39,816 nucleotides of DNA from a virus. Its lineage: Duplodnaviria; Heunggongvirae; Uroviricota; Caudoviricetes. The notes beneath the pieces were generated by a model. It did not search any database. It had not been told where the DNA came from and saw only the letters and a program-made list of their open reading frames with translations. How positions within the stretch are numbered: position 1 is the first letter of the stretch; every line of letters starts with the position of its first letter. Shown here piece after piece: positions 1,095 through 38,537 of the stretch. The translations under genes were made by a program, and so were the position numbers. Location: IMG/VR virus record IMGVR_UViG_2541047807_000001, positions 1 through 39,816 of that record; one strand, given 5' to 3'.

Positions 1095-1157
1095 TCACCC
1101 ATAAGGTAACAAAAATCAAGGATAGTTACCTATGAGGTGCATTTACCTGTTGGGTAA
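1095..1157. promoter_or_regulatory. OR-like operator cluster (three TTACC-N5-GGTAA-type sites) between the Cro-like and repressor genes
   Basis: TCACCcataaGGTAA (1095-1109), TTACCtatgaGGTGC (1126-1140), TTACCtgttgGGTAA (1143-1157) in the divergent intergenic region. Confidence 0.6.
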
Positions 1158-1212
1158 TATTGCTTTAAATTGAATCATCTACTGATTCATATATGAGGCG
1201 ATTTTCCAGAAA

Positions 1213-1797
1213 ATGAAAAGTATCCAGGACGTCCGCAGGCAAAATCTCAACGACTTGATCGACCGTGAATTCAATGGTGTTCAGACGCGGATGGCAGAAA
1301 AACTTGGAACTCAGGCAAATCTGGTAAACCGCTGGGCTCTTGGCAAGAAGGTTATCGGCGACCAGGTTGCGCGAAAAATTGAAGCTGCCGCCAATAAACC
1401 CCGTAACTGGCTTGATATTGATCGTTCGCTTTCTCAGGAGGGTTTTCAGCCTGTCGGCCCGAGCGATATAGGTCAGCTGGCGGCTCACAACCTGGAACGC
1501 TGGATGAGCGAAAGCCGCGACCTTTCAACACAGGGAAAACTTCACCGCGCATCCGGCGTCGCCCAGGTGACAATCAGCCGTCTGTTAAACAATGAGGTCA
1601 GCGTTTCCATTTCCACCCTGGAGAATGTTGCATCCGCATTCGGGCGTCACGGATATGAATTACTGATTCACCCGCACGACCCCGCGACTATCAACTATGA
1701 CCGCTCGCGCTACGCATTGTTACCTGAAACAGAGAAGGCAAAGATCGAAAGTTACATTGAATTTGTCATCAACCAGAACGAAAAAAGCAAACAATAA
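1213..1797 (+). CDS. CI-like immunity repressor with tandem HTH domains and no S24 peptidase domain
   Basis: N-terminal XRE-type HTH (QTRMAEKLGTQANLVNRW) and a second HTH (ASGVAQVTISRLLNNEVSVSISTLENVASAFG). No Ser/Lys autocleavage domain recognisable. Divergent from the Cro-like gene. Confidence 0.65.
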   Translation: MKSIQDVRRQNLNDLIDREFNGVQTRMAEKLGTQANLVNRWALGKKVIGDQVARKIEAAANKPRNWLDIDRSLSQEGFQPVGPSDIGQLAAHNLERWMSESRDLSTQGKLHRASGVAQVTISRLLNNEVSVSISTLENVASAFGRHGYELLIHPHDPATINYDRSRYALLPETEKAKIESYIEFVINQNEKSKQ

Positions 1798-1817
1798 AAC
1801 TATAGTTTTCAGCAAGT

Positions 1818-1842
1818 AAGCCGCCTTCTGGCGGCTTTTTTA
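1818..1842 (+). terminator. Rho-independent terminator after the repressor gene
   Basis: aagccgcc-ttct-ggcggctt hairpin followed by a T-run. Confidence 0.6.
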
Positions 1843-1854
1843 TTGCCAGACAGA

Positions 1855-1930
1855 TTACCTTATGGGTAATTTTTTTAACTCATATCTATTGACATCAAAC
1901 CAGATACGCATAATTATTACCTCAACGGTA
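1855..1930. promoter_or_regulatory. OL-like operator pair upstream of the plus-strand early operon
   Basis: TTACCttatgGGTAA (1855-1869) and TTACCtcaacGGTAA (1916-1930), followed by RBS gaggtg and the first early ORF. Confidence 0.55.
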
Positions 1931-1949
1931 ACAGACCGAGGTGACAAGT

Positions 1950-2102
1950 TATGCAGTGGAAAATCATCAACGGTTGGTACTGCGTTACTGCATGCGGATT
2001 CATGAGCTGGAAGTTCCGCACCTTACAGGAAGGCATTAAGTGGGCTTTCGTCAGCAAAGAAGCTCGCGATGTAGCCAACGATAACGAGATATGGGAGGGC
2101 TG
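1950..2102 (+). CDS. Small hypothetical protein, first gene of the early-left operon
   Basis: 50-codon ORF (MQWKIINGWYCVTACGF...) directly downstream of the operators with an RBS-like gaggtg. Below the ORF-track size cutoff. Confidence 0.3.
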
Positions 2103-2105
2103 ATA

Positions 2106-2405
2106 ATGAACGTTAATCAGCAGAAAAATCTTCAAAAAATCATGCTGGCATTCGACAAGGACTACCGCCTGTCAGAACAGCTATATGACCGACAAGTTGA
2201 ACTGATTGAGAGTATCCGGCTTCATCAACTGGCATCAACTTTCGACGCTGTAACAGTTAAAGGCGTTCGCCAGGAAGTACTGGAGGCCGCTAAAGACAGT
2301 CCAGAGTTCGAAGAACTGATGGATTCCTACCGGCGCGAGGCAATGGCAATTATCGCCCGCTGGGATCTGGCTGATCAGCTTGATGGGCAGAGGGACGCGG
2401 CATGA
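2106..2405 (+). CDS. Hypothetical protein
   Basis: ORF with RBS gggaggg 8 nt before ATG 2106; translationally coupled to the next gene. Confidence 0.5.
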   Translation: MNVNQQKNLQKIMLAFDKDYRLSEQLYDRQVELIESIRLHQLASTFDAVTVKGVRQEVLEAAKDSPEFEELMDSYRREAMAIIARWDLADQLDGQRDAA

Positions 2406-2608
2406 AACCAACACTCCTCTCATTGCTGCGAGGTGGAAAACACAGCATCCGAGATATGGCAAAGATTCTTGGTATCTCAAGATCGAAGGTTTCTTGGTTC
2501 ATCGCTGAGCTTGAACGTCGCAAATGGGTAGAGGTAACCAGGAGCGCAATATATTTCCACGATGGAACCAGATCCAACAAGCAGAACGAATACAAGGTTA
2601 AGTTATGA
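2402..2608 (+). CDS. Small HTH DNA-binding protein
   Basis: HTH-like segment IRDMAKILGISRSKVSWFIAELERRKW; start overlaps the stop of the upstream gene. Confidence 0.5.
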   Translation: MKPTLLSLLRGGKHSIRDMAKILGISRSKVSWFIAELERRKWVEVTRSAIYFHDGTRSNKQNEYKVKL

Positions 2609-4304: not shown

Positions 4305-4353
4305 CCACCACCGCGGCGCCACGCGCGCCGCACTGCAACCAAGAGAGGTATTT

Positions 4354-5845: not shown

Positions 5846-5848
5846 ACG

Positions 5849-7099
5849 TTATTCCCCCGCCATCCACTTCTCAAACTTCGACGGGGAGAACGGAATCAGA
5901 TCCGTATGCTCCCCGTTAATCCAGGAATCAATCATATCGGCCCACTGCTGCAACATGTAGGCGCGCTGTCTGGCGTATTCCGCTTTGTTATATACGGCGC
6001 GCACACCTTTCTGCTCATGTGCCAGAGCCTTTTCAATCCAGTCTGAAGGATAACCAGCCTCATGCAACAACGTACTGGCTGTACGGCGCATATCGTGTAC
6101 GGTGAAGCCCTGAATATGCTCACCATCTTCATTTATTATTTTCACCGTTCTGTCGATCAGAGAGTTCAGCGCGGCATTAGATAATGGCTTCCGGAAATTG
6201 TAACGACCAGGAACCAGATATTCACTTCCACCAGCGCACATCTGCAACCCAACCAATATATCCTGTGCCTGTTTAGGCAGGTAAATAACGTGCGCCCGGC
6301 TTCCCTTCATGCGGTCTGAAGGAATTGTCCATGTCCATTTTTTAAAATCTATTTCATCCCACGTTGCATTGGTGAATTCGCCTTTACGAACCATAGTGAT
6401 AAGCACCAGCTTTAAAGCCATTTTCATAGTGCCCATAGCACCAATGGCATCCAGCGTGCGGAAGAACAGGCCAATTTCTTCTGGTGTCAGTGTTCGCTCT
6501 CGTGGTTTAAATATGGCGATAGACGAAGGTTTAATGTCAGCCGCAGGATTAAACAAACCATGACCACGGTCATTGGCGTGACGGTATACGCTGCTGATGA
6601 TCTCCCTGGCCTGTACTGCTGTTGCCCGACCACCGCGTTCGACAATCCGGTCACACAAATCACGAACCATCGATGTGGTAATTTCAGCCATCATTTTGTT
6701 GCCAAGAACCGGAAGTATGTCACGGTCGATCACCGCCTGCTTCATTGCGCGGGTACTGTCAGCCAGGATGACGTGTTTCATATAACTGTCGGTATGTACC
6801 GCAAACGTCTCGGCACCACGAATCTTTTTGATACCGTCACGTTTAGCCGCAGCCGGCGACTGGCCTGCTTTAAGCAGCTTCTTTGCAGCAATCAGTTCTT
6901 CTCGCGCTTCTGCCAGGCTGATACCGTCACGCCCATACTGCCCGATTACCAGTGTTTCGCGGCGACCGTTGATACGGTAGTCATAGCGAAACGAGACCGT
7001 GCCTGACGTAAGCACAGCTACATACAGCCCGTCACGATCGGAGACCTTGTACAGTTTGTCCTGCGGCTTGAGGTTTTTTAATTTTGTATCGGTAAGCAC
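5849..7099 (-). CDS. Tyrosine recombinase, phage integrase (P4-type with N-terminal arm-binding domain)
   Basis: 416 aa. N-terminal LTDTKLKNLKPQDKLYKVSDRDGLYVAV (arm-binding type) and C-terminal catalytic region with HDMRRTASTLL and a conserved Tyr. Confidence 0.85.
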   Translation of the reverse strand: MLTDTKLKNLKPQDKLYKVSDRDGLYVAVLTSGTVSFRYDYRINGRRETLVIGQYGRDGISLAEAREELIAAKKLLKAGQSPAAAKRDGIKKIRGAETFAVHTDSYMKHVILADSTRAMKQAVIDRDILPVLGNKMMAEITTSMVRDLCDRIVERGGRATAVQAREIISSVYRHANDRGHGLFNPAADIKPSSIAIFKPRERTLTPEEIGLFFRTLDAIGAMGTMKMALKLVLITMVRKGEFTNATWDEIDFKKWTWTIPSDRMKGSRAHVIYLPKQAQDILVGLQMCAGGSEYLVPGRYNFRKPLSNAALNSLIDRTVKIINEDGEHIQGFTVHDMRRTASTLLHEAGYPSDWIEKALAHEQKGVRAVYNKAEYARQRAYMLQQWADMIDSWINGEHTDLIPFSPSKFEKWMAGE

Positions 7100-7130: not shown

Positions 7131-7160
7131 GGTATGAGAGTATACCTTTAAGGTAATACC
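7131..7160. promoter_or_regulatory. Operator-like palindrome cluster upstream of the integrase
   Basis: GGTATgagagtATACCtttaaGGTAATACC: overlapping inverted repeats containing a TACC-N5-GGTAA site (7143-7156). Confidence 0.45.
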
Positions 7161-7243: not shown

Positions 7244-7416
7244 TTGAGTTGGCATCTGAATAGGAATGATTTGCTATGAGTTAGCTGTTAATCATTCCCA
7301 CTCAATTATTTACGACATGCATAACCAATTGACTGATAACAACTTTCTGCAACCTGATTTTCACCGTACCGTTTTATATACCGTCACCGGAAATCAGTAC
7401 CATGAAAAATGCCATG

Positions 7417-12070: not shown

Positions 12071-12175
12071 GTTAAATCTCCAGATAGTCGCAGCACCCGT
12101 TGCGCCGCATATCTGGTTATTCTATTACCCATAAAACCATATATGGATAGAAAGACTGTGAATATGAATAGATAT

Positions 12176-12190
12176 TACCTTTCAGGTAAT
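12176..12190. promoter_or_regulatory. Repressor operator-type site TTACCtttcaGGTAA
   Basis: Perfect TTACC-N5-GGTAA palindrome upstream of the antirepressor-like gene. Confidence 0.5.
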
Positions 12191-12228
12191 TTGCAAAACG
12201 TGCTGGATAGCAAACAAATTATTTGCTA

Positions 12229-12244
12229 CTGTATAAATATACAG
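12229..12244. promoter_or_regulatory. LexA (SOS) box
   Basis: CTGTATAAATATACAG matches the CTGT-N8-ACAG LexA consensus, about 20 nt upstream of the ORF start. Confidence 0.65.
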
Positions 12245-12266
12245 TTATTGCATGGAGAAGATTAAG

Positions 12267-12524
12267 ATGCAGCAGTATCACTATCCACTGGAAGACGGAT
12301 TTACCGAAAGGATTCACACGCCGGGAGGCGTCAGGTCACTGGTGGAGGGATCGCACTTGATGAAATTACTCCGGGATCTCGATAAGGATGGATTTAATGT
12401 CGATGGCCCACTTGCCGAACTGACTGCACTGATTAACTACGTCACCAGCTCACAGATGTCTATGCAGGATCTGCAAACACATCTCGACTATTGTGCCGAA
12501 CAATTACGAAAGCAAACCAGATAA
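12267..12524 (+). CDS. Small antirepressor-like protein (stand-alone paralogue of the antirepressor C-terminal domain)
   Basis: HLMKLLRDLDKDGFNVDGPLAELTALINYVTSSQMSMQDLQTH parallels LLMNLLNQLQEDGHDVSGAAAELTTMFCYIVGVSKCLRDIQTH in the downstream antirepressor. Preceded by the LexA box. Confidence 0.5.
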   Translation: MQQYHYPLEDGFTERIHTPGGVRSLVEGSHLMKLLRDLDKDGFNVDGPLAELTALINYVTSSQMSMQDLQTHLDYCAEQLRKQTR

Positions 12525-12555
12525 GGTTTGCAATTACCAAGTGGAGTGCTTATAT

Positions 12556-12570
12556 TTACCTTTGCGGTAA
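12556..12570. promoter_or_regulatory. Repressor operator-type site TTACCtttgcGGTAA
   Basis: Perfect TTACC-N5-GGTAA between the two antirepressor-like genes. Confidence 0.45.
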
Positions 12571-12663
12571 ATTTACATCGCACTCCTCTTGTGCCATAGT
12601 AATCAGGCACTGGCAAAATCCAGTGCCGGGATTGGCGTCCCGGGTTACTACAGAGGCACATAT

Positions 12664-12687
12664 GCCGCATAAGCGGTTTTTTTATGT
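12664..12687 (+). terminator. Rho-independent terminator
   Basis: ccgc-ataa-gcgg hairpin followed by a run of seven T. Confidence 0.5.
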
Positions 12688-12837
12688 GTAAAGCGCACCT
12701 ATTCTATGGTGGGCTGTGTGGGGGCACCGAAAGGTGCGCCGGGTCCTTTGTAGCCGGTTACGCCAACCCTGCACAGTTCACCACCAACCGATTGGCGTCG
12801 GTAGTGGTGATTAACCTAACTACAAAGGTGATCACTA

Positions 12838-13523
12838 TGACTGCTAACGTAACCCCATCTGTTTTTCATTTTGAATCAGAAGCAACCATTCGAGCCATTG
12901 TTATTGATGGAAATCCTTGGTTTGTTGCCAAAGACGTTATTAAAGCTCTTCAACTGACAAACCCCACTATGTCAATAAAATCTCTTGATGATGATGAAAG
13001 GGCTAAATTTAACTTAGGCCGTCAAGGCGAAACCAATATTATCAACGAGTCAGGCCTCTACACACTGATCCTCCGCTGCCGCGACGCAGTGACACCAGGC
13101 ACTATCCCCTACCGCTTTCGTAAATGGGTTACAGGTGAGGTTCTTCCTCAGATCCGCCGCACCGGAAGTTACATTAAAAACTCGCTCCCGCAGGAAGAAC
13201 GCATAAAGATGGTTGCCGACCAGGTAGCCAACGCCATAGCATCAGCAGTGATGCAGGCAATGAAGATAGAGAACAAAACCTACAGTGCCCCGCTGAAGCC
13301 CGGCTACCGCAGTCTGATTCATTCGCCGTCGGGTGTTCTCGGCCTGACGGAGAACTCACTGCTGATGAATCTGCTGAACCAGTTACAGGAAGACGGGCAT
13401 GACGTATCGGGCGCGGCGGCGGAGTTGACCACCATGTTCTGCTACATCGTCGGTGTGAGCAAATGCCTGCGTGATATCCAGACCCACGCGGAGTACATCA
13501 ACGACAAGGCAGGGTTCTTCTGA
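12838..13523 (+). CDS. Antirepressor (Bro-N / AntA-type N-terminal domain)
   Basis: FHFESEATIRAIVIDGNPWFVAKDVIKALQLTNP is a Bro-N/Ant signature. RBS aaggtga before ATG 12838; the longer ORF-track start at 12684 lies in the terminator T-run. Confidence 0.7.
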
Positions 13524-13594
13524 CGGCGGCGGCACAGGGATGTGCCTTTAAATAATTCTGTACAGATTGCAGACTGTGGGTGAATAGCGTACTA

Positions 13595-13609
13595 TTACCT
13601 CAAGGGTAA
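13595..13609. promoter_or_regulatory. Repressor operator-type site TTACCtcaagGGTAA
   Basis: Perfect TTACC-N5-GGTAA upstream of the toxin-like module. Confidence 0.45.
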
Positions 13610-13669
13610 ACGGATTGGTTTCATTTTTATTAATCCGTGTAATGAACTTATGAGATATGAGGTAATGTC

Positions 13670-13849
13670 ATGCGAAACGAAAAATTGCAGATGCGTAGAG
13701 CGCAAGCTGCCGCAAGACGTTCTTTCAATGGAAGCGTAGAGTACGTAAAAGTTACTATGACAAAAGATCACGCAAGTCGCGTATCCCGCGCTTTCTTTGA
13801 TTCTCGTAACAATAAGGAAAATTATGAGTTCGTCTGCGTCGCAGAATGA
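13670..13849 (+). CDS. Small basic protein overlapping the start of the toxin-like gene (candidate partner or antitoxin)
   Basis: 59-codon ORF with RBS gagg 8 nt upstream; overlaps the next gene by 26 nt. Confidence 0.35.
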   Translation: MRNEKLQMRRAQAAARRSFNGSVEYVKVTMTKDHASRVSRAFFDSRNNKENYEFVCVAE

Positions 13850-14369
13850 TAAAAATCAAATTGTCAGATATAAGGGTCGAGTGTTGCATACGCAAAATTT
13901 CTCGGCCCTTTGTGCATCTGATCTTGAGCTGAAGAAAGTATCTGATGCCTTTACCCAGTATTGGAAAACGGGATACCATCCATCTCTTGGTAAAGATGCT
14001 GCATTTGCTCGTCCGACAGAAATGCTTAAACTAAATGTCAGGCATACTCATGTCGATAACCAAGACTATATTCCAGAAGATAGTGATAAAAAACACACTG
14101 GTAAAAAATCATCTTGGGATGCATGGAAAAATATAGCGTCTGTACAAGTAAAATGCATACCAACAAGTGATTGCTTTTTAGTTTATTCGGTAAATCACAA
14201 TCGTGATGCGCTGGTTATGTTTTTTGTTGACGCAGATGCTCACAACATAACTGAGCAAGAAGAGTTTAAAGAGGAAGCAATCACTATCAGTTATCAATTC
14301 TTTGAGAAAACAAAAACAGAACCAATGCCTTTAGAAGAAGATCTTTTTTCTGATAAATGGAAGGAATAG
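13824..14369 (+). CDS. YafO-like toxin family protein (candidate ribosome-dependent mRNA interferase)
   Basis: Three blocks in YafO order: YWKTGYHPSLGKDAAF, LNVRHTHV, CFLVYSVNHNRDALVMFFVDADAH, matching my recollection of E. coli YafO (...FGRDALY.., ..ERVAHIHL.., ..AHLVYCQGAFDEQAWLLIAILKPEPH). RBS aaggaaaa before ATG 13824. Confidence 0.5.
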   Translation: MSSSASQNDKNQIVRYKGRVLHTQNFSALCASDLELKKVSDAFTQYWKTGYHPSLGKDAAFARPTEMLKLNVRHTHVDNQDYIPEDSDKKHTGKKSSWDAWKNIASVQVKCIPTSDCFLVYSVNHNRDALVMFFVDADAHNITEQEEFKEEAITISYQFFEKTKTEPMPLEEDLFSDKWKE

Positions 14370-14390
14370 CCCGCAGCGCGGGCTTTTTTG
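14368..14390 (+). terminator. Rho-independent terminator
   Basis: agcccgc-agc-gcgggct hairpin followed by six T. Confidence 0.55.
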
Positions 14391-14460
14391 TGGACGAAAC
14401 AAAAGTCAGTGCTACACTCATTGACGCCACATTGAGGTGGCTTATAGATGGAAATTTCAC

Positions 14461-14623
14461 AATGAAAAAAGCATTTGCTGCACTGTTCGTTTTGTTGTCT
14501 CTGGTAGCTTCAACTCAGGCCTTTGCCGGTCGTTGTCAGCACGACAGCGATACTGCTGCTGACGGCTCCCGCTGCGGTGGGCGTTCTGCGGATTCCCGTC
14601 CGGGCGGCGGTGGCATTCGTTAA
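14461..14623 (+). CDS. Small secreted peptide with signal peptide, Cys-containing and Gly-rich
   Basis: MKKAFAALFVLLSLVASTQAFA signal peptide, then a 31-aa mature part. Own sigma70-like promoter TTGACG-16-TATAGA just upstream. Confidence 0.45.
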
Positions 14624-14659
14624 AAACAAGGCCGCGAAAGCGGCCTGTGACATGTCACG

Positions 14660-15109
14660 CTACTTGCGAAATCTTTCTTTACCCTTCCAGCCAGTAGATG
14701 TTAGTTCAGGATGAATGGTTCCCAATATAAAGCCAACCATAGCGGAGCGAGGATCTTCTATTTTATCCGTTAATTCTTCGGCATAACTCACAGGCAACCA
14801 AGCAACAAGATCACCAATCCTCAGCTTTGGTCCTTTGCTGTAAGATGAATCGGCAATAACAAAAAATCCACCATCAGCTGAGCACACCTTCAGCATTGCC
14901 CTTTGTCTTCCAGAATCTAGCAAAACTGGCTGTTCCCCACTGGGACCAGGTATGATGATGGCTGGCATTGGTTTATTGGCTGAAAGGCTTGTGTCAAGAT
15001 ACTTACACGCATACTCAAAAGCTGAAAAGTTATCCTTAAAGATAAGAGGTTGAATTTTATTGCTAACCTCCTTACCACCGATTAATCTGTTGATCATCTT
15101 CTTGAACAT
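14660..15109 (-). CDS. Hypothetical protein (AT-rich accessory gene)
   Basis: ATG at 15109 with RBS aggtga; about 150 aa; opposite orientation to flanking accessory genes. Confidence 0.5.
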   Translation of the reverse strand: MFKKMINRLIGGKEVSNKIQPLIFKDNFSAFEYACKYLDTSLSANKPMPAIIIPGPSGEQPVLLDSGRQRAMLKVCSADGGFFVIADSSYSKGPKLRIGDLVAWLPVSYAEELTDKIEDPRSAMVGFILGTIHPELTSTGWKGKERFRK

Positions 15110-15121
15110 AAAGGTCACCTA

Positions 15122-15562
15122 ATGATTAAGCCGATGCACGCTATTACAGCTACCGTTTTGTTTATCCTACCAATTTTTTCGTTTGCAAACGACATATGTT
15201 TTAAGAATTTAATAAATGAGGATATGTGTGCACATGCAAACAAAATCGCATCAGAAGCAGGAAAGTCACTTCCCATAAAATTGAATGATAATATGTCTAT
15301 TGTTTCAATAAATGCAATACTAAACAAACTTTTAGTTGTAGCGCATCTTAATTACAACAACAGCTATTTATCAAAAGTTTATAATGGTGATATAACCTTA
15401 GAAAATAAATTAAAGAGTGTGATGCGAAATTATTCAAAATCGAGCATTTGCTCCAACAGGCAAATGAAAGCATTTATTCACCTTGGCGGAGAGATTGAGT
15501 ATAGGTATGTATTTAGTGATGGCAATATATTTGATACATACGCCATCACTAATTGTGAATAG
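15122..15562 (+). CDS. Hypothetical periplasmic or exported protein (AT-rich accessory gene)
   Basis: N-terminal hydrophobic signal-like segment ITATVLFILPIFSFA, four Cys, low-GC composition. Confidence 0.5.
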   Translation: MIKPMHAITATVLFILPIFSFANDICFKNLINEDMCAHANKIASEAGKSLPIKLNDNMSIVSINAILNKLLVVAHLNYNNSYLSKVYNGDITLENKLKSVMRNYSKSSICSNRQMKAFIHLGGEIEYRYVFSDGNIFDTYAITNCE

Positions 15563-18500
15563 CTATTTCATCTGCTCTTCAACTTTATTTAGTAACGGTG
15601 ATATCGCCCACAGGTTCTGAAAAGGTAGCATTTTACGGACCGCGTGGGTTTGCTGGCTGTCAAATTCTCCGTTAAGTACACCATTCGCAACCGTCGCGGC
15701 ATCACCGCCAAGATCAAAGGTAGGACCAAGTAAAGCACCAATAGCATTACGACTCTGAAACCTTGATACCGGAGGCGCACCAAACATCGCGCCAAGACCA
15801 AACCTACCGCCGCTTATGTTCTCAACGGTATTCAGCGGCTCAGAGAGCCAGCCAAGCATTCCGCCCCGGTCGATCCCCTCTTTCACAAGGTTATTCCAGC
15901 TGTAGTCGATATCGCGACCGCTTAACTTCTGTTTCATCATATATACCATTGAGCCAAGCGCAATCGTGCCAAGCGCACCAAGATAGAATGCAGCATCGCC
16001 CTGCTGGATACCAGATACCAGCACCCTGTTATGCTGTGCGAAGATAAACGTTTTGAACTGCGTGATCATCTTCCAGCCTTCTTTACTAAAAAACAGCGGT
16101 GTATCACCTACGCCAGGCGTTACAATCACTGAGTCTACATCTTTCAGCACTGCAGACTGGAAAATCTCTCTAGCGAAACGGTCATCCCACAGATGACTAT
16201 GCCCGGTTAACAGCCCGTCCATATCCTCTCCGTGCTTCCCGAATTGCTCCCCGATTCGGCGCAGAACATCTTCATTGATGCCGACCTGTGCCATCTTCCG
16301 CATTTCACTTTTGGAGAGCGTGCCACCAGCAGAAACTTGGCGAGCCGCGTCAAGTATCCTCGACTGCACTATCATCCCGGACCATGATTTAAGTGCGCTG
16401 TTCCACTGATTCATCAGCGTCCAGTTACCGAATTTCTGCGTCATCCAGTTCAGACCTCGCTCAGCGGCGCTTCTCCGGCTATAGGGGTCAGTAAGATCCG
16501 CTATAGCCTTTGTACGCGTAGACAGGACATAATCAAGCCCAACGGCCATTTCTCGCAAATCCCTAGTTGCAATTTTCACTGAGTCCATATTTTTAAGCAT
16601 GCTTACCATTGGTCCGAGAGATTTTCTCAGGCCATGCTGCATCATCGGTCGCATCAGATCAGTTGCAGCGGAGACAGTCATTCCACCAAGCAAACGGAGG
16701 AAGTTAATATTCCTAGCAACTCGCCCGGCACGAACAAAGAAACTGCGTGGATCTTGAGGTGCGCCGTAAGTACCAAGCAGTCGATCACGCATAGCCGTAA
16801 TATCCCTAATATCAGCCTCCCGTTGCTTCTCAAGAACTGCACGTCGTTTAGGTGTTTTAGCCTCTTTTATTAGCCGGGTATATTCCTCACTAACCTGACG
16901 GATTTGCTCCCCCATATCTTTACGGCCAAACTGCGCAGTCAGCTCAATTTCTGGTGCCACCTGCCGGAGATAACTTTCCATGATGTAGTTAACATCTGAT
17001 TCAAGAAAATCTTCTATACGCTCATCAGGAATAAGCAGCGTTCTGCTTTTAGTGAAACCAGCCCGACCAACGAGTCTCTCTGGGATAATATCGGCTGGTA
17101 CAAGCCCGGAAGGTGCGCCTATTATTTTATTCACGATCTCGTCAGCAGCGTCCTCTGCTTCCTCTCGGGATAGAGGCTCCATCTGCTTCAGTGCTCGTTC
17201 GCGGCTTGCATTCAGCCTTGTGGTTGAATTTGCCCGTTTTTGCAGTCGGCGAAGCTCAGAACGATATTTCCGTGGATTATCCAGCAACTCCATATGGCGC
17301 TGATAGACAGGAAGCTCACTCTTTGCCTGCGCTATATCATCAAGGCGTGTTTTAAGGTCAGAGCTTTCTTTCATCATTCTTGCCTGAAGTTTTTCTGATG
17401 AAGTCTCGGCCAACTCTTTTTCTATTCTTGTAAGACGCGCCTGTGTGTCAGTCTCCTGAGATATAAGCTTATTTCGTTTATCCAGTTCTTCCATGAGTAG
17501 AATTTTTTTACCAGACCATTTCTCCGCTTCAGCGATTTCACTAGCGAGAGCATCAGCGCGCGGTGCCGATTCCTCTGCAGTTTTTAGCAATGAATTTATC
17601 CTTTCAATTCGCTGACCTGCTTTGTCAGCACCTTTGGCACTAATCCCTTGTATCCAGTTGGCAATTCGCCCTCTGAATTCAGTGCGGTCGGAAAGTATCT
17701 TATCGAACTTATAAATGCGGGGAAGATAACTTTTCGCCGTCACGACATCGATATCCTCAGGAAGGATCCCCAGTTCCTGCATACGGGCTTTTGTGGTCTC
17801 GAAAATGGGGCGGATTCTGGCGGCTGCTTGTGAAACCTCAGGAATATCACTCTGATCACCACGGCGCATAGCCATGCCAACAGCTTCATTGAAATCAATA
17901 AAGTTCATCCTCTTCACGCCGCGGGCGCTAACAGATTTGCTGTACTGCTGGTAAGCATCACGAGTGGCTTCCATCTGCTTATAAAGCATGGCGTCGTATT
18001 GCTTAATCTTAGTCTCGACTGCCGTAAACGTAGCCAACCCCTCATCATTTTTGGCGAAGAAATAGTTATTTTCGGCAAGCTGCTGGTTAATCTGACGGGA
18101 GACAAGAGATGGTGATTGAGCCAAGCGGCCAGCAGGAGTGACACTCAACGTTTTGTTAGCAAGTCCAAGTCCAGCGAGCTGTTCCTGATCGAGTGTGGTA
18201 TTGAAAACCTGAGCTGCACCAATGCTTTGAGGAGAATCCATACCTCGCAAATGATTACCTACTGAGTTAACCACTGCCTCGCGCGCGCTAGGTCCAGCAA
18301 GTAGCTGTGCACCAGCACCAAGGATCCCACCAACGAGAGCATCAACAACAACGTTCGATACGCTCTCCATCGGTGAGCGAGCTTCCTGAGTGGCCTGTAA
18401 TGCGGCTTCTGATACTCCCCCACCAGCAGCATTCGCCAGGGCAAAACGCCCTGCCGTCTCAGCAATACTTCCTCCACGCGCTACCGCCCCTACAGGGATA

Positions 18501-18952: not shown

Positions 18953-21699
18953 TATTTGCCCCCTGCGTATATATTGCTCGGAAGGTAATTGGCTGAACCA
19001 TAACCGAATGGTTTGGTCAGATCTGGAGGAGTATATCCATCTTTATTGCTGAACTGCGGCAGCGGATTGCCTTCTCTCCGCACTCTAGCCTCATCAACAC
19101 GTTGTTGCTGGAACTGAATGGTTTGCCTGTACATTGGAGATGTCAGCTGATCCGGCTTGAAACGAACAGGGAGACCATTTTCTCCAATATAATTTCTCGG
19201 TTCTATCGCTCCGTTTGCGTCAGGCTGTAAAACCATAACAGCATAACTCCTATCCCTTGCCGTAAGGCCATCAGAAACAAGTATTAAGTCCGTATCACTG
19301 CGAGGACCGCCAAAGGATTTTGATTTAAGCTCGCGTTTTTCCTGCTCCCACTGCCCCTGTATCCAGTTACCAGCACCATTATTTACTCCGTACAATGCCT
19401 CAGGTGCATACTTCATAACCTCTGCTTTGCCATTAACCGTAGAAACTCCCCAGGTGGTTCTGATCATGGCATTGGTCATTTTCTCAGCCTGTTCTGCATC
19501 GCCACCTGTCTGTACAAAGTTAGCATCGTAAATTGTCTGGTAATCTCGCTGATAGGCCGCATTTGATTTTCCTGGATCGGTAATATCCGGAGACCACGAA
19601 CCAAAGGAAGTCAGACTGCTGGCGTTATTTTGTGCAGCAGTTGCCCTCGCCGCGACATATTTTTTGTCTCGCATGGCAGTGGAAAGCATCTGTTTCATTC
19701 GGTCATCCTGTTGGAACACCTGGCTGTAAGCCATATCAACAGCCTTATCCTCCGGCACGCCAGCGCGGGAATAATCGTAAACCTTGCCGTAAAATGCCAT
19801 CGTACTTTTATCAAGTGTTGCCGCTGCCGCCGGATTATTATCGAATAACTGACCGTAGAATTTTGCCATCGGGACAACCAGCGCAGGATCTCTTGATGTT
19901 GCTCCACTGTTAAGCATTGTTTTAACCTGAGTTGGTATCATGCCGCTTTTAGTTGTGACGGTGACCAGTGTATTGATGCTCTGCGGATCAGATATGGAAA
20001 ACGAAGGCGCGATATCCTGCGCGAAATAACGGTCTACCGCTGCCTGATTGTTTTTGTCGTTCGGGTCCAGCGGGAAGTTATTTTGCATTGAAGACACGAA
20101 CCTGTTTCTTCCCTGCTGAATCTCCCACTCCCTATCCATCTCTTTAAATTTGGCCTGCATTTTCTCCCAGCGTTGCTGGTTAGCTGCAAATCCAGGAGCG
20201 TTTGGATCCTGTGGACGTAAACGTTCAAGAATGTCTTGTCGTCCTTCTGGAGTGAGGTCTTTAGCGGCACCAATGACACCTCCATATTGTATCTGCGCCT
20301 GCATATCCTTCCACTTCATAGCGCCAATGCGCGGACCATTGGCCCGGATAAAATCGTCCTCAGAAGGTAACTTCTCAGGTTTCAATCCTTCATCAAGGGC
20401 TGAATATGCATCTTTAACTACGGTGCTAAGCTGGTCCGCATACTGCTGGCGGTACTGATTTCTCAGCTCATTAGCCTGCCTCAATGCCTGTATTTGCATT
20501 TGAGGGCTCATAGCATCAAATGCCGCATTGCCCGTATAACGCTTAGGTGAATCAAGGTTAGTTAGACCAAGGGCTGCCGAGATACCAGTTTCAAGCTGTT
20601 CGGTGCTATAAGGCATACTGCCATTTTCGTGTTTAATAATCCCAGCACATAAAGCAGCTAGTGTCTTTGGGTTAGAGATATCAAGCTGATCATTCTCCCC
20701 AACACCAAGCTCACCACACAATGCCCTAATATAAGCATCAGTATTATTACCATCACTAGCCGGAGCATAGCGATTAACAATCTCGCTAACGGTGTCATAG
20801 CCTTGACGCTGGTAAGACAACATATTTTTACCCAACGCGCGGATTCCATGCTCAGGGGTAGCAAACGTTGCAAAACGTCCATCGCTACCGATCTGACCTT
20901 CCCACGGGTTAGATTTGCTCGCTTCAATATTACCAGGGTTATTATTACGTAAACCACGAGCATCCAATGAATTACCATGTGATATTGCACGACTCACACC
21001 ATCAAGATCCCCTGGCTCTCCATTAACCTGAAGAAACTCGTTGTATTTTTGAGCGATATTTCCTATCCATGCTTGCTGCCCCATTTGTTCCTTGAGCTGA
21101 GTTTTCTGCTGAACACGCCACTCATCAGGAAGCCCATGCGCATCAGCGTATTGATCAATAGATTCAAATCGCTGCTTGGCTAAATCGACAAATGCTTGGT
21201 TATCGCTATATAGCCCCGCAGACTGAGTGACAGCCAATGCATTTCCTGACAAATACGTTTGATCTTGGAATTGCTGAAACTGCCCAACTTCATATCGACG
21301 TGCCTGATTGTAATAAGACTGCATAGACTGCTGGAGTTGAAAGGATAATTTATTCCTTTCCTCACTTTCAGGAATTGAGCCTAATAATGCCTGAGCCCTT
21401 TCCTGCATATTTTTCATAACAGCGTCACTCTGACCAAGAGCGTTTTTACCCTGTTTAGAAATCAGCCCACTTTCAGGGTTGTTAATCTGGTCATCTGCAA
21501 ATTGGTTAAATTGCAGTAACGCCTCCTGGGCCATAGCAACATTCGCTTTCTGCCTGGCTTCACCATATGCCACCGCATACTGATCTGCGACATTCGCCAG
21601 CACCTGACCTGCTTGAGGAACATCGAAGATCTGAAAACCACCGGTTTGCACACCACGACTTTGCACCTGGCGTCCGGATGTAGTAGGAACAACAGGCAT
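18952..21699 (-). CDS. Internal virion / core protein (T7 gp15-like position)
   Basis: 915 aa structural-operon gene; contains a RGLRNNNPGNIEAS...W.G segment that may be a cell-wall-interacting domain. Confidence 0.55.
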   Translation of the reverse strand: MPVVPTTSGRQVQSRGVQTGGFQIFDVPQAGQVLANVADQYAVAYGEARQKANVAMAQEALLQFNQFADDQINNPESGLISKQGKNALGQSDAVMKNMQERAQALLGSIPESEERNKLSFQLQQSMQSYYNQARRYEVGQFQQFQDQTYLSGNALAVTQSAGLYSDNQAFVDLAKQRFESIDQYADAHGLPDEWRVQQKTQLKEQMGQQAWIGNIAQKYNEFLQVNGEPGDLDGVSRAISHGNSLDARGLRNNNPGNIEASKSNPWEGQIGSDGRFATFATPEHGIRALGKNMLSYQRQGYDTVSEIVNRYAPASDGNNTDAYIRALCGELGVGENDQLDISNPKTLAALCAGIIKHENGSMPYSTEQLETGISAALGLTNLDSPKRYTGNAAFDAMSPQMQIQALRQANELRNQYRQQYADQLSTVVKDAYSALDEGLKPEKLPSEDDFIRANGPRIGAMKWKDMQAQIQYGGVIGAAKDLTPEGRQDILERLRPQDPNAPGFAANQQRWEKMQAKFKEMDREWEIQQGRNRFVSSMQNNFPLDPNDKNNQAAVDRYFAQDIAPSFSISDPQSINTLVTVTTKSGMIPTQVKTMLNSGATSRDPALVVPMAKFYGQLFDNNPAAAATLDKSTMAFYGKVYDYSRAGVPEDKAVDMAYSQVFQQDDRMKQMLSTAMRDKKYVAARATAAQNNASSLTSFGSWSPDITDPGKSNAAYQRDYQTIYDANFVQTGGDAEQAEKMTNAMIRTTWGVSTVNGKAEVMKYAPEALYGVNNGAGNWIQGQWEQEKRELKSKSFGGPRSDTDLILVSDGLTARDRSYAVMVLQPDANGAIEPRNYIGENGLPVRFKPDQLTSPMYRQTIQFQQQRVDEARVRREGNPLPQFSNKDGYTPPDLTKPFGYGSANYLPSNIYAGGK

Positions 21700-30915: not shown

Positions 30916-30983
30916 ATCAATGACTCCGTACGCAATTAAATTATTACCAATTTAACCACATATGATTTATTTATCGTAGATAG

Positions 30984-31020
30984 TTGACATTTAACGCACG
31001 AATTATTACCTTTCAGGTAA
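30984..31020 (+). promoter_or_regulatory. Promoter-like element with overlapping repressor operator
   Basis: TTGACA (30984-30989), 17-nt spacer, weak -10 TACCTT overlapping TTACCtttcaGGTAA (31006-31020). Reads toward the leader, tRNA and moron gene. Confidence 0.4.
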
Positions 31021-31342: not shown

Positions 31343-31419
31343 GTGGCATTAGCTCAGTTGGACAGAGCAACCGCCTTCTAAGCGGTTGGTTGCAGGTTCG
31401 AATCCTGCATGCCACGCCA
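31343..31419 (+). tRNA. tRNA-Arg (anticodon TCT)
   Basis: Hand-folded cloverleaf: acceptor GTGGCAT/ATGCCAC, D-stem GCTC/GAGC, anticodon stem ACCGC/GCGGT with loop CTTCTAA, T-stem GCAGG/CCTGC with loop TTCGAAT, 3' GCCA. 77 nt. Confidence 0.85.
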
Positions 31420-31462
31420 GAATCACGCCTAAGGACCGTGATGCCAGAAGTTCCAGGTGCTT

Positions 31463-31506
31463 GGCGGTGATGGTTTCCCTTGAAGGACTATCACCGCCCT
31501 TTTTAC
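31463..31506 (+). terminator. Terminator-like hairpin after the tRNA
   Basis: ggcggtgatggtttcccttgaaggactatcaccgcc stem-loop followed by ctttttac. Confidence 0.45.
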
Positions 31507-31582
31507 AGCAGGACGCCATTGCGATGACTTCATGCTGTAAACCAGTACAGCCACGGAAGGCATAACTCATTGCTTCCAGTTC

Positions 31583-31606
31583 GCCCGGTTCGCCGGGCAT
31601 TTTTTT
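31583..31606 (+). terminator. Intrinsic terminator / attenuator-like hairpin immediately upstream of the moron RBS
   Basis: gcccgg-ttcg-ccgggc hairpin followed by at plus seven T, ending about 11 nt before ATG 31618 with only the RBS aaggtgag between. Confidence 0.5.
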
Positions 31607-31617
31607 AAGGTGAGATC

Positions 31618-33603: not shown

Positions 33604-34196
33604 TGATTGCCATCCTGACGTTCTTTCAGTCTCTTCCTGGCTGCCGCTATGCGATCAGCAATTGTCACATTCACATTAACATCCAGGCGTTCTTTGAATG
33701 CATTGACATCGACGTGCTTACCAATCAGCTCAAGGTTCTTCACCTTGTCAGGCCATTTAATTTTTTTGAGGATTGTCTCTATCGAATCCTCGTTCATGTT
33801 CATGATGGTCGATGACAGATCAAAGCCGCTAAGCGTAGTGCGCCAGATTTTCGGCCACTCGCGGATTGGCTTAAGGCTCCCATCGTCGTTGAGGATGTCG
33901 ATCACGTCCATCTGGTCGATCTCCACCAGGCGCATGAGAACGTAATCAGCACTGACGCGCATTCGTTTGTTGCGCTCCTCCATCAACTCGGCAATCCGTT
34001 TTTGAATGCGTTCATCGCGCATCATGACACTGGCTTTAACTGCCGCTGTATTTGGGGAGAATCCTGCATTAATCGCTGCCTGAGTCTGGTTTTCAGGCGT
34101 TTTGATGTATGACTGGCAATAAGCCTCCTGCATTGCTGTTAGTGGCTTAAATTGCGTTGATTTGCGTTTATAGGTTTTAGGTTCAGCAGGCATCAT
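33600..34196 (-). CDS. Terminase small subunit
   Basis: MPAEPKTYKRKSTQFKPLTAMQEAYCQSYIKTPENQTQAAINAGFSPNTAAVKAS is a small-terminase N-terminal pattern. Start ATG at 34196 or 34193; the longer ORF-track start includes 5' UTR repeats. Confidence 0.65.
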   Translation of the reverse strand: MMPAEPKTYKRKSTQFKPLTAMQEAYCQSYIKTPENQTQAAINAGFSPNTAAVKASVMMRDERIQKRIAELMEERNKRMRVSADYVLMRLVEIDQMDVIDILNDDGSLKPIREWPKIWRTTLSGFDLSSTIMNMNEDSIETILKKIKWPDKVKNLELIGKHVDVNAFKERLDVNVNVTIADRIAAARKRLKERQDGNQ

Positions 34197-34313
34197 AACC
34201 ACCGTGGTAATAGTTACCGTTGTGGTAATAGTACCATGCAAAATAAAGCCGCCATAGTTGGCGGCAGTATTCAAAACCATCAAATTCATCATGCATAATC
34301 TACTCGTGACATG

Positions 34314-34655
34314 TCACACTATTAATTTCGTTTCATGCCAGCCTTTAGTCACCCAGCATTGCGAGTCACCATTACACGGGCATGAATTAACGGGAACTCT
34401 CTCGCCGCACTTACCGCAACATTTTCTGCTGATCGATTTTATACGCCCGCGCACGCGTGCATCATCCTGGCGGATCAGTAACGCTATATACTCACCAAAT
34501 TCGTAAGGCGCACGCCCGGGGCGACGCGTGGCACAGTTACGCTCCAGCATTTCAATTTCCTGAGCATCAAGCACAATTTCCAGCTTACGCACACCAGATG
34601 CAGCTTGTCTGGCTCTCTGAGCGGCTTTGCGCTCTGCTGCTGATTTAGCCATCAA
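34314..34655 (-). CDS. Hypothetical protein with Cys-rich C-terminus
   Basis: 113 aa ending in CCGKCGERVPVNSCPCNGDSQC; last gene before the late operon. Confidence 0.45.
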   Translation of the reverse strand: MMAKSAAERKAAQRARQAASGVRKLEIVLDAQEIEMLERNCATRRPGRAPYEFGEYIALLIRQDDARVRGRIKSISRKCCGKCGERVPVNSCPCNGDSQCWVTKGWHETKLIV

Positions 34656-36024: not shown

Positions 36025-36025
36025 A

Positions 36026-36439: not shown

Positions 36440-36449
36440 TTGTTATGCC

Positions 36450-36647
36450 TCAATACACAAAATCTGTTTTAAATTCATGGTTACATTCTGGACAGCATGT
36501 TTCGTAACCTTTTATTTCTTCACATGCCTGTTTAGCTCCAGAAAACTCCCAGAAATCTGGATCACAAAGCAGATCGAAATTGTGACCACATTTGGGACAT
36601 TCGGTATCAAGTGACAGACTCCAGTAGGCAGTGATGTTTTTATCCAT
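36450..36647 (-). CDS. Small zinc-ribbon protein
   Basis: CPKCGH ... CCPECNH pairs of Cys motifs. Same 17-nt translation initiation region as the nuclease-like gene. Confidence 0.45.
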   Translation of the reverse strand: MDKNITAYWSLSLDTECPKCGHNFDLLCDPDFWEFSGAKQACEEIKGYETCCPECNHEFKTDFVY

Positions 36648-36648
36648 A

Positions 36649-37251
36649 TCACTCTCCTTTGATGCGAATGCCAGCGGCGCGGATAGATTTCCATTGTTCC
36701 CACATTCGGTTGAAGTCTGTGCCTGATAAGGTTGCGTTACGGTATCCAGTTTCGGTACGCAATCCTTCAAGCGTCGATTTGGAGATACAAATTGAATGCA
36801 TTACCCATGATTCAAACAAATCACGCTCCCGAGCTTCGCAACTTTGCTTACTCATATATTCGATACGATCAGCCATCGCAGCGCACTCTTCAAAGTTGCT
36901 AAATGCCTTTCGCTCCCATTCAGCGCATTGTTTTCTAAGCTCTGCAATCAGCTTGTCTTTGCCTTCCAGCTCAACTCGTAGCTTCCCAACCGTTAGCGCA
37001 ATATCCTCGTTCTCCTGGTCGCGGCGTTTGATGTATTGCTGGTTTCTTTCCCGTTCATCCAGTAGTGCCAGCACGGTTTCTGGTCCGGTCAGAAATTTGA
37101 AGGCGTTGAGCGCATCAATATCCACACCGTAATCTTTAAGTTCCTGTTCACTTAACAAATCATCATCAGCTGGCAACATTAACAGGAGTTCCATTGCTGG
37201 AATTGCACGTTCCGCCGCCTCACGCAGTGCCTGGTAATTAATTTCGCTCAC
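36649..37251 (-). CDS. Hypothetical early protein
   Basis: GTG start at 37251 with strong SD GGAGG 7 nt upstream, overlapping the stop of the previous gene. Confidence 0.45.
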   Translation of the reverse strand: MSEINYQALREAAERAIPAMELLLMLPADDDLLSEQELKDYGVDIDALNAFKFLTGPETVLALLDERERNQQYIKRRDQENEDIALTVGKLRVELEGKDKLIAELRKQCAEWERKAFSNFEECAAMADRIEYMSKQSCEARERDLFESWVMHSICISKSTLEGLRTETGYRNATLSGTDFNRMWEQWKSIRAAGIRIKGE

Positions 37252-37552
37252 TGGTTGCCTCCTTTGCTGGGCTTTCGAACTTCTGAGTGGTTGTATCAAA
37301 CTCAAACAACTTAACCACGTCATCAAACAGGACATAATCGCCATCAGAATCTTCAGTCATGTCAGCGCCACAATCCTGACCGCACGAGTCACAACCACCC
37401 ATATCAAGCTCGTATCGCTTCAGGTTTGCGATATTTGATAAATTCAGCGCCAGTACAGCCAGGTCATAAACCTCTTCGGCAGTGACATCGCTGTTCAGTC
37501 CCATTTCATGGCGATATATGATTTTTTCTACTTGTTGTTTTGTGATTGTCAT
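37238..37552 (-). CDS. Hypothetical early protein
   Basis: 104-aa ORF, acidic, coupled within the early-right operon. Confidence 0.45.
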   Translation of the reverse strand: MTITKQQVEKIIYRHEMGLNSDVTAEEVYDLAVLALNLSNIANLKRYELDMGGCDSCGQDCGADMTEDSDGDYVLFDDVVKLFEFDTTTQKFESPAKEATSERN

Positions 37553-38061
37553 TTTTGCTCACCTCCCTGTTCTTCCAGAAAAATACGCATAGCCTCAAGC
37601 ATCTCTTCGGTGTCATATGGTGACAACTTGTCACGCAGGATGTGTTCAATGCTGTTAATGAACTTGCGGATTGCTTTGCGTTCAATTTCAGCCAGGAAAG
37701 CATCTGTAGCCAGGGTTTGCGGCATACCTCCGTCTGTTGCGCAGATATACGCATCAGATATTTCATCCTGCTCGCCATTAAACACATAGCAACTCTGTAC
37801 GATAAATTTATTCAGCTCCGCATTCTCCGCCGCCAGCGCCGAAAACTTCTCGTGTGCCAACTTAACAGCCGCATCAGCCTGCTTAATTGACTCAATCGCT
37901 CTCTGGTGGTCTTCGGCCAGCTCATTAGCACGCACCAACTGAACTTCCAGTTGCGCTGCCAAACAGCGAACAAGCACGGATGGTGCGCCTGTCATGTCGT
38001 CAGCTAACGCATGCCCTGATGCCACTAAATCTTTGATCATACCTTCAGCCATACTTTCCAT
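37549..38061 (-). CDS. Hypothetical early protein
   Basis: 170-aa ORF coupled to the downstream gene. Confidence 0.5.
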   Translation of the reverse strand: MESMAEGMIKDLVASGHALADDMTGAPSVLVRCLAAQLEVQLVRANELAEDHQRAIESIKQADAAVKLAHEKFSALAAENAELNKFIVQSCYVFNGEQDEISDAYICATDGGMPQTLATDAFLAEIERKAIRKFINSIEHILRDKLSPYDTEEMLEAMRIFLEEQGGEQK

Positions 38062-38122
38062 CTTTACCCTCGCTTATCCACATAACTTATTGATTACATT
38101 GATAACTAAAAAGATCGTCGAT

Positions 38123-38467
38123 TCAGAACTCTTCGATTTTCCAGCCACCACCTGCTTTCTTTGGCTTAACAGTTACCCCGATGATTCGGAACGGATATTG
38201 ATCTGCGGCGACTTTGGTTTTCACCCTGGCGTCGTCGGTCCAGAAACCTTTCACTTCGTGCAGTTCCATCTCTCCGGTGGCGAGCATCACAGCGAAATCT
38301 GGCGTATAGAACGTGTTATCAGCTAACCGCAGCTTGATACCCTCGAATCGATACCAGGCGATTTCCCCTGCACGTTTACGCAGCTCAAGGTGCTGGCAAT
38401 ACGCAGATTCTGTTTTGTTCATCTGGCCTGTTTTGAGTCGACCAAGAGCCTGTATCTGTTTTCTCAT
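38123..38467 (-). CDS. Small PD-(D/E)XK-like protein (DUF1064-like)
   Basis: YTPDFAVMLATGEMELHEVKG fits PD-x(n)-E-x-K; 114 aa. Confidence 0.4.
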   Translation of the reverse strand: MRKQIQALGRLKTGQMNKTESAYCQHLELRKRAGEIAWYRFEGIKLRLADNTFYTPDFAVMLATGEMELHEVKGFWTDDARVKTKVAADQYPFRIIGVTVKPKKAGGGWKIEEF

Positions 38468-38470
38468 GAT

Positions 38471-38537
38471 TTACCCCTGAGGTAATTAAAAACCACATAA
38501 GACACGAAATCAATAGAGTTTAGAATATTTTATTACC
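38471..38537. promoter_or_regulatory. Operator pair between the P-like gene and the next early gene
   Basis: TTACCcctgaGGTAA (38471-38485) and TTACCcagcaGGTAA (38523-38537). Confidence 0.45.

Follow-up and report, generated by a model that had tools for sequence, protein, structure and literature searches.

A dispersed palindrome as the probable operator of the immunity repressor in a phiV10-type ε15-like phage genome

In the 39,816-nucleotide window analyzed here (positions 1–39,816 of virus record IMGVR_UViG_2541047807_000001, to which all coordinates refer), the palindrome TTACC-N5-GGTAA (TTACCNNNNNGGTAA) recurs at dispersed positions between genes. Very probably, these palindromes are the operators of the ε15/SPC32H-type immunity repressor Rep, which is encoded at 1213–1797. 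This reading is based on the motif statistics, the syntenic conservation of the sites, the homology of Rep and of its antirepressor Ant to characterized proteins, a LexA box at the ant promoter, the annotation of phage ε15 and the effect of repressor overexpression in phage ZX5. A preliminary description, made from the letters of the same DNA, had proposed that the immunity repressor controls a dispersed, genome-wide regulon, and the overlap of the sites with predicted promoters, their syntenic conservation and the ε15 annotation all argue in favor of this proposal.

The first 8 kb of the window are 96–98% identical to phiV10, O157 typing phages 9 and 10, ZX5 and other Uetakevirus genomes in megablast searches, which also returned ε15-like Salmonella, Enterobacter and Klebsiella phages at lower identity. 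In tblastn searches, all phiV10 proteins mapped colinearly onto the window in the opposite orientation, and the gene of a DnaT-like replication protein was found split across both window ends, about 35 of its residues (residues 123–157) being encoded twice. Hence, the window represents a phiV10-type ε15-like podovirus (Uetakevirus), the genome of which is complete and circularly permuted. The phage is not lambdoid, although some of its genes bear the labels P-like and Cro-like.

Statistics and conservation of the palindrome

The exact motif occurs ten times in the window (1143, 1855, 1917, 12175, 12556, 13595, 31006, 34214, 38471 and 38533) compared with 0.02 occurrences expected from dinucleotide shuffles, and 15 matches are obtained with at most one mismatch compared with 0.77 expected. 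When conserved degenerate copies are counted in, about 15 credible sites are reached. A weight matrix of 21 bp, trained solely on the sites of ε15, Tyrion and BUCT711 and controlled with 300 shuffles, detected 12 sites in the window at a threshold of 15 bits, where the shuffles gave 0.06, and 16 at a threshold of 7 bits, where they gave 1.4. Ten sites score between 19.7 and 26.1 bits, 1095 and 7142 score 15–16 bits, and 758, 1126, 34196 and 9076 score 7.8–9.6 bits. Two one-mismatch matches, at 8321 and 9076, fall within the endolysin and membrane-protein genes and probably represent the roughly one chance match expected.

The distribution of the motif with respect to genes was assessed with a coding mask built from homology to phiV10 proteins, which leaves 7.1% of the window non-coding; a greedy set of open reading frames (ORFs) was dropped as a mask because it took in spurious antisense ORFs. 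Although about 93% of the genome is coding, all 15 credible sites are intergenic, the probability of finding ten of ten exact sites in this position being about 3e-12, and 11 of the 16 non-coding gaps of at least 40 bp carry a site. Terminators split the genome into many short transcription units, at the starts of which the sites are located, and the window scan returned no site inside the long structural operon. LexA boxes as a source of the dispersed motif were rejected, their number in the window being that expected by chance and only the box at ant being convincing.

These results refine the preliminary description, which had rightly regarded the motif as rare by chance, and for which the scan with a position weight matrix and a shuffled control was run here with sites of other phages as the training set. 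Its list of about 12 sites was essentially correct, although it lacked the pair 34196/34214 before terS and the degenerate site 758. The three sites that it placed between the Cro-like and repressor genes are present, but only 1143 is exact, 1095 having one mismatch and 1126 two. Both sites announced after the repressor are exact, the second starting at 1917 and not at 1916. The site upstream of the integrase gene lies at 7142 instead of 7143; it has one mismatch and is embedded in a larger hairpin. As for the sites assigned to both antirepressor-like genes, 12556 is indeed located at the promoter of the Bro-Ant gene, whereas the one given as 12176 starts at 12175 and is more likely to serve the tailspike promoter than ant. 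The site before the toxin-like cassette and the one on the TTGACA promoter before the tRNA were correctly described, both overlapping a -10 position. Lastly, 38471 was recovered between the P-like gene and the next early gene, but its companion is at 38533 and not at 38523.

The motif is also found in exact form 8–11 times in each of phiV10, ε15, SPC32H, Tyrion and BUCT711, at the same gene junctions, with the extended consensus ATTACC-N5-GGTAAT and a preference for A/T at the center. In alignments of the PL, OR, terS, structural-operon and P/next-gene regions, the half-sites and the adjoining promoter hexamers form conserved islands, and the five central bases and the flanks vary. TTGAC and the operator at 31006 are kept in six genomes, and the position syntenic to 758 holds a one-mismatch site in phiV10 (33112) and Tyrion (35365). 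The phages sharing the motif have Escherichia coli, Salmonella, Enterobacter, Klebsiella and Serratia as hosts. In three more distant Rep-bearing prophage loci, TTACC-N5-GGTAA is the top 5-N-5 palindrome of each, and it is retained even in a prophage of Serratia, the Rep of which has 54% identity.

The dispersed operator set itself is already known, since it was predicted and deposited for ε15. In the RefSeq record of this phage (NC_004775), seven ATTACC-N5-GGTAAT sites bear the label "protein_bind: repressor; lysogeny": one before terS, one before the structural operon, one between ant and tailspike, three on the PL side and one at the junction between the replication gene and the next gene. 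The window sites 34214, 31006, 12175, 1855/1917 and 38533 are syntenic to annotated ε15 sites, 34196/34214 corresponding to 12–27, 31006 to 2931–2947, 12175 to 19895–19911 and 38533 to 35906–35922. The OR-region sites and the second member of the 62-bp pair described below are unmarked in the ε15 record, and the phiV10 record carries no operator annotation.

Rep, Ant and the architecture of the predicted promoters

Residues 1–190 of Rep align with residues 2–197 of SPC32H Rep (PDB 5D50_A, E 3.5e-42), which makes it a full-length homolog, and the repressors of phiV10 and ZX5 match the protein at 99.5% identity. The Pfam scan placed an HTH_3 domain at residues 106–147 and a YdaS-like helix-turn-helix (HTH) at residues 21–61, and returned no Peptidase_S24 match in Rep. 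Among six phages, Rep is 43–78% identical overall, yet the stretch ANLVNRW..G.K.IG..AR.IE is invariant. The predicted recognition helix, NL(V/I)(N/S)RW, is nearly invariant as well: among the DNA-binding domains of about 80 full-length homologs, out of 86 homologs found, it varies only by N to S and V to I substitutions. In the Ant-binding half of Rep, identity falls to about 40%.

Citing papers describe Rep as composed of an N-terminal DNA-binding domain, a middle dimerization domain and a C-terminal tetramerization/Ant-binding domain (PMC9986798). According to these papers, the Rep tetramer binds palindromic DNA with two pairs of DNA-binding domains, each pair coming from different dimers, and is disassembled by tetrameric Ant (PMC9638917, PMC9986798). 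How the tetramer engages DNA has "not been extensively characterized", in the words of a 2023 paper (PMC9986798). In ZX5, overexpression of the repressor eliminated free phage and decreased the holin and endolysin transcripts by more than 99.9%; no operators are defined in that study (PMC9782041).

In the window, the small ant gene adjoins the tailspike gene and has a LexA box at its promoter. A second LexA box, with one mismatch, is present at 12156–12171, on the side of the tailspike promoter. By eye, and without computed values, Ant of the window and Ant of SPC32H share about 85–90% identity, whereas the C-terminal Ant-binding half of Rep looks far more diverged, an asymmetry in a pair of proteins that must interact.

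The sites adopt a limited set of geometries with respect to the predicted promoters (Table 1). At 1917, 12556, 13595, 31006, 34214 and 38471, the operator comes right after the -10 element or overlaps it, while at 1095, 12175 and 38533 it fills the spacer between -35 and -10. In a third geometry, a second operator is placed in tandem at 17/18 bp or else exactly 62 bp upstream, which leaves the promoter sandwiched. When nine genomes or loci were compared, distances between neighboring sites of 62/63 bp were counted 15 times, 17/18 bp 14 times, 30/31 bp six times, 48 bp three times and 72–76 bp six times. The 62-bp pair is laid out as operator, about 19 bp, -35, 17 bp, -10 and operator, and is encountered at the early-left and second early-right promoters of every genome; these two promoters differ in the register of the pair with respect to their other features. 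At 38471, the adjoining promoter of the DUF1064 gene reads TTGATT-17-TTTAAT on the minus strand. No partner site above 0 bits was found with the weight matrix at ±17/18 or ±62 bp of 7142, 12175, 12556, 13595 and 31006.

Site 12175 is better placed for the tailspike promoter, because it fills the spacer of this promoter, lies off the ant core promoter, and ant has its own LexA box. Site 31006 also precedes the leftward structural operon, whose gp3-like start (30915) is about 90 bp away. The role of the int-proximal site is uncertain: its mismatch, which is identical in phiV10, ε15, SPC32H, Tyrion and BUCT711, creates a -10-like TATACT on the int strand, and the annotation at this position in the ε15 record is of integrase and RNase III sites, and not of a repressor site. 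The inverted repeat flanking 7142 is of 8 bp (GACGGTAT...ATACCGTC), and the attP core reported for ZX5, ATTGAGTGGGAATGATT, is found on the minus strand at 7290–7306, 191 bp upstream of int.

Table 1. Positions of the Rep system genes, putative operators, predicted promoters and neighboring elements in the window (strand "." for palindromic sites)
Feature	Position	Strand	Remarks
Degenerate putative operator (2 mismatches, 9.5 bits)	758..772	.	Past cro-like terminator 806-787, upstream of p42-like and replication genes
cro-like gene, ε15 gp39/phiV10 p41 homolog, divergent from rep	828..1058	-	100% identical to phiV10 p41
Predicted cro-like promoter, leftward	-35 TTGTTA 1112-1107 or TTGATT 1119-1114; -10 TATTAT 1089-1084	-	
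Putative OR-region operator (1 mismatch, TCACC...GGTAA, 15.4 bits)	1095..1109	.	Overlaps -35/spacer of leftward cro-like promoter; in all relatives
Putative OR-region operator (2 mismatches, TTACC...GGTGC)	1126..1140	.	Exact in ε15, SPC32H, BUCT711; 17 bp to 1143
Putative OR-region operator (exact, 21.4 bits)	1143..1157	.	Overlaps conserved TAATAT/TTAAAT -10 candidates of rep promoter
rep, immunity repressor	1213..1797	+	N-terminal HTH DNA-binding, HTH_3-like middle dimerization, C-terminal tetramerization/Ant-binding domains
Putative upstream operator, early-left (PL-like) promoter	1855..1869	.	Exact; 19 bp before -35
Predicted early-left promoter TTGACA-16-TAATTA	1889..1916	+	-35 CTATTGAC and -10 (1911-1916) conserved in six genomes
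Putative downstream operator, early-left promoter	1917..1931	.	Exact; begins right after -10; 62 bp from 1855
int	5849-7099	-	Site 7142 lies upstream
Degenerate site (ATACC-N5-GGTAA, 16.3 bits)	7142..7156	.	43 bp upstream of int, within 8-bp-stem inverted repeat
Predicted tailspike promoter, leftward	TTGCAA 12196-12191, TATCTA 12174-12169	-	
Putative operator (exact, 26.1 bits, best of window)	12175..12189	.	Fills spacer of leftward tailspike promoter; about 45 bp upstream of ant -10
Perfect LexA box TACTGTATAAATATACAGTT	12227..12246	+	Overlaps ant -10; CTGT-N8-ACAG at 12229-12244
ant, small antirepressor	12267..12524	+	PDB 5D50_E match, E 4.4e-47; 97.6% identical to phiV10 p24
Putative operator (exact)	12556..12570	.	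Right after -10 of predicted rightward promoter TTTGCA 12527-12532, spacing 18, TATATT 12551-12556
Putative operator (exact)	13595..13609	.	Overlaps -10 TACTAT 13590-13595; -35 ATTGCA 13566-13571, spacing 18; predicted accessory-cassette promoter
Putative operator (exact)	31006..31020	.	Overlaps -10 position of predicted rightward TTGACA promoter (30984-30989) reading toward tRNA-Arg(tct)
tRNA-Arg(tct)	31343-31419	+	Downstream of TTGACA promoter 30984-30989
Putative tandem operators, 18 bp apart	34214-34228 exact; 34196-34210 one mismatch	.	Between extended -10-like TGGTACTAT (34236-34228, minus) and terS start 34193
Terminator	34265-34248	-	Just upstream of terS operator pair
Putative downstream operator, P/DUF1064 junction (exact)	38471..38485	.	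Right after -10-like TTTAAT 38490-38485 (minus); overlaps ribosome-binding site of DUF1064 gene (start 38467)
Putative upstream operator, P/DUF1064 junction (exact)	38533..38547	.	Fills spacer TTGATA (38554-38549)-16-TAAAAT (38532-38527), minus; 62 bp from 38471
P-gene terminator	38579-38560	-	Directly before operator 38533

From this layout, a mechanism can be proposed in which almost every short unit would have at its start a separate σ70-like promoter, each provided with an operator. The units operated by Rep would be the cro-like gene, p42 and replication, early-left recombination, the second early-right operon, terS-terL, the tRNA/structural-operon region, the tailspike, the Bro-Ant antirepressor operon, the accessory toxin-like cassette and possibly int. 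In a lysogen, Rep would occlude these promoters in parallel, and not by a lambda-style cascade. Upon DNA damage, LexA would leave the box at the ant promoter, leading to the synthesis of Ant, which would bind Rep and thus remove it from all operators at once, releasing the lytic program. The derepressed Bro-Ant gene, being itself under the predicted control of Rep, would then reinforce the switch. Paired operators could be engaged by a single tetramer, in tandem at 17/18 bp or by bridging at 62 bp, i.e., about six helical turns.

A further proposal goes beyond the ε15 annotation and is more tentative: taken jointly, one Rep tetramer may clamp the RNA polymerase site at the 62-bp pair through a six-turn micro-loop, while the operators would be frozen and the diversification of immunity shifted to the Rep-Ant interface. 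As each genome carries operators at ten or more loci, both the specificity of the operators and the recognition helix of Rep would be frozen across at least five host genera. The invariant 62-bp promoter sandwich and this freezing across host genera may be new.

Competing explanations and related systems

Several observations weigh against the proposed Rep operators. The promoter assignments at terS, int, p42 and rep are made on weak hexamers, and neither the motif nor the DNA-binding domain varies in any of the relatives found, so that covariation is silent on the identity of the binder. The lysis cassette has no site in the window, where a half-site only is present, and relatives have a one-mismatch site there; because of this gap, control of the genome is incomplete. 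Finally, the Cro-like protein is as conserved as Rep and could read or co-read the motif. It might be the main reader or, as in lambda, share the sites with Rep, the dispersed copies then serving down-regulation during the lytic phase. Three sites are indeed located between its gene and rep, and the protein, which has no Pfam match, carries an HTH-like block AGTTSHYIQTHLTG conserved in all relatives and is 58–84% identical across the phages sharing the motif. Nevertheless, this explanation is unlikely, because palindromic operator binding is assigned to Rep by the ε15 annotation and by the SPC32H literature (PMC9638917), and because overexpression of the repressor alone silences late transcripts in ZX5 (PMC9782041).

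Instead of occluding promoters, some sites (38471, 34196, 758 and the third PL-side site of ε15) might hinder elongation or read-through past terminators as stoperator-like roadblocks, or prevent translation initiation. Such a role has a precedent in the stoperators of mycobacteriophages (PMC9283540), and would suit both the location of several sites immediately past terminators and the contact of 38471 and 34196 with ribosome-binding sites and start codons. It is nonetheless improbable, even more so than a reading by the Cro-like protein, since the sites are palindromic and without orientation bias, none is located within a long operon and a -10-like element directly adjoins nearly all of them.

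The palindromes could also act as RNA hairpins (attenuators, processing sites or weak terminators) and not as protein-bound DNA. Each of them can fold into a stem of 5–8 bp (-3.3 to -5.8 kcal/mol), and the int-proximal copy belongs to a larger hairpin regarded as an RNase III site by the ε15 annotators. These stems are however weak and lack a consistent U-tract, their bases alone are conserved with zero compensatory changes in more than 100 copies, and several sites are located in promoter spacers, which are not transcribed from the promoter concerned. Moreover, the distance of 10 bp from one half-site center to the other is that typically seen with HTH dimers, and a role as hairpins appears highly improbable. 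The same very low likelihood holds for binding by a host factor or for a function in packaging or replication, as could be suggested by the sites flanking terS and the P-like gene. Indeed, the motif occurs at nine other unrelated junctions and travels with the Rep gene across five host genera, and we know of no enterobacterial regulator with a TTACC-N5-GGTAA consensus.

The closest systems are those of ε15 (NC_004775) and SPC32H (PDB 5D4Z/5D50), which have the same motif at syntenic positions, homologous Rep and Ant proteins and a LexA box at ant. Nevertheless, Rep of the window is only about 43% identical overall to its counterparts, with a much more diverged C-terminal half, and the window has extra units predicted to be operated by Rep, namely the isrK/C4 RNA and Bro-Ant operon and the YafO-like cassette, which are absent from ε15. 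The window is thus another member of the ε15/SPC32H system, of the E. coli phiV10 type.

In phage P1, the operators of the C1 repressor are scattered over the genome and include Op51, which precedes the c4-icd-ant operon of immI. As in P1, one immunity repressor would act here on many dispersed promoters, one of which drives a C4 antisense RNA and an antirepressor operon, and the order operator-bearing promoter, C4 RNA and antirepressor gene is found in the window, the resemblance being one of organization. The two systems differ in that C1 is not expected to be homologous to Rep, its operators are asymmetric 17-mers and not palindromes, and induction involves Coi and Lxc instead of LexA and Ant. 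By analogy, the function of Rep may resemble that of P1 C1 more than that of the lambda repressor.

The stoperators of mycobacteriophages L5, Bxb1 and TipsytheTRex likewise consist of many repressor sites spread over the genome, the repressor acting beyond one early promoter pair. They are asymmetric, oriented with transcription and located in operons, where a monomeric repressor stops elongation (PMC9283540). None of these features was found for the window sites, which are palindromic and placed at the promoters of unit starts, and Rep is reported as a tetramer (PMC9638917). As for the OR/OL regions of lambda and P22, the preliminary description had likened them to the sites flanking rep. These sites do flank rep, three of them lying between the divergent rep and cro-like genes and others at the early-left promoter, but the likeness is a loose one. 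Indeed, the repressor has no S24 autocleavage domain and would be inactivated by Ant, which makes induction antirepressor-driven. Operators are also present at late, tailspike, accessory and second early-right promoters, ten of the 15 sites being outside the regions flanking rep, and the spacings of 17/18, 30/31 and 62 bp differ from those of lambda and P22.

Neighboring features and significance

Downstream of the promoter and operator at 12527–12570, Rfam searches identified an isrK Hfq-binding RNA (12607–12683, 74.7 bits) and a C4 antisense RNA (12702–12788, 79.5 bits). They are followed by a Bro-N::Ant-like gene (about 12837–13523), the C-terminus of which (13281–13508) is 42% identical to Ant. 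This cassette is common to phiV10 and Tyrion and is not found in ε15. In its layout, 12527–13523 is similar to the immI module of P1, with a second antirepressor in fused form. Behind operator 13595, the accessory cassette (13670–14623), absent from phiV10, contains an ORF (13797–14369) with a weak Pfam match to the YafO toxin (26.1 bits, for a cut-off of 25).

Other features were noted along the window. Its ends (1–110 and 39712–39816) are redundant and contain a 20-bp hairpin unit, TGGGATCATTCAACATCCCG, followed by T-runs, at 68–87, 92–111 and 39789–39808; this redundancy indicates a circular assembly with an overlap of about 105 bp. The replication gene also holds iteron-like repeats, possibly a mark of the origin. 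At 34306–34317, the p55-like 'transcriptional regulator' gene contains at its 3' end a perfect 12-bp palindrome, GTGACATGTCAC, which just precedes the terminator and the terS operators. It is kept in phiV10, Tyrion, ε15 and SPC32H, and could be a pac-related site or a late-regulator site. The annotated terS start of phiV10 (position 41) is upstream of the terminator and operators, whereas in ε15, SPC32H and Tyrion terS starts after them. About 60 bp upstream of the gp3-like gene (about 30925–30985, minus strand) are nearly invariant in six otherwise diverged genomes (CTACG.TAAATAAATCATATGTGGTTAAATTGGTAATAATTTAATTGCGTACGGAG). This candidate late promoter or leader includes both an extended -10-like element, TGGTTAAAT, and a half-site, GGTAAT. 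Finally, tRNA-Arg(tct) is encoded on the plus strand and shares positions with the homolog of phiV10 p04 (31352–31600), annotated on the opposite strand, an overlap suggesting that the phiV10 record includes p04 as a spurious ORF.

The main value of these results is for annotation. Transferring the operator map of ε15 yields a near-complete promoter/operator map of a phiV10-type genome, and phiV10-type E. coli phages, which are used for O157 typing and as reporter phages, have no operators annotated in their records. This map would explain how a single Ant protein sets off the whole lytic program. For phage engineering, it designates the tRNA, the YafO-like cassette and the Bro-Ant operon as accessory units expected to be silent in lysogens. 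Besides, the quantized spacings of 17/18 and 62 bp provide a concrete prediction for the engagement of DNA by the Rep tetramer. If the operators are indeed frozen, homoimmunity at the DNA level would be expected among all ε15-like phages.

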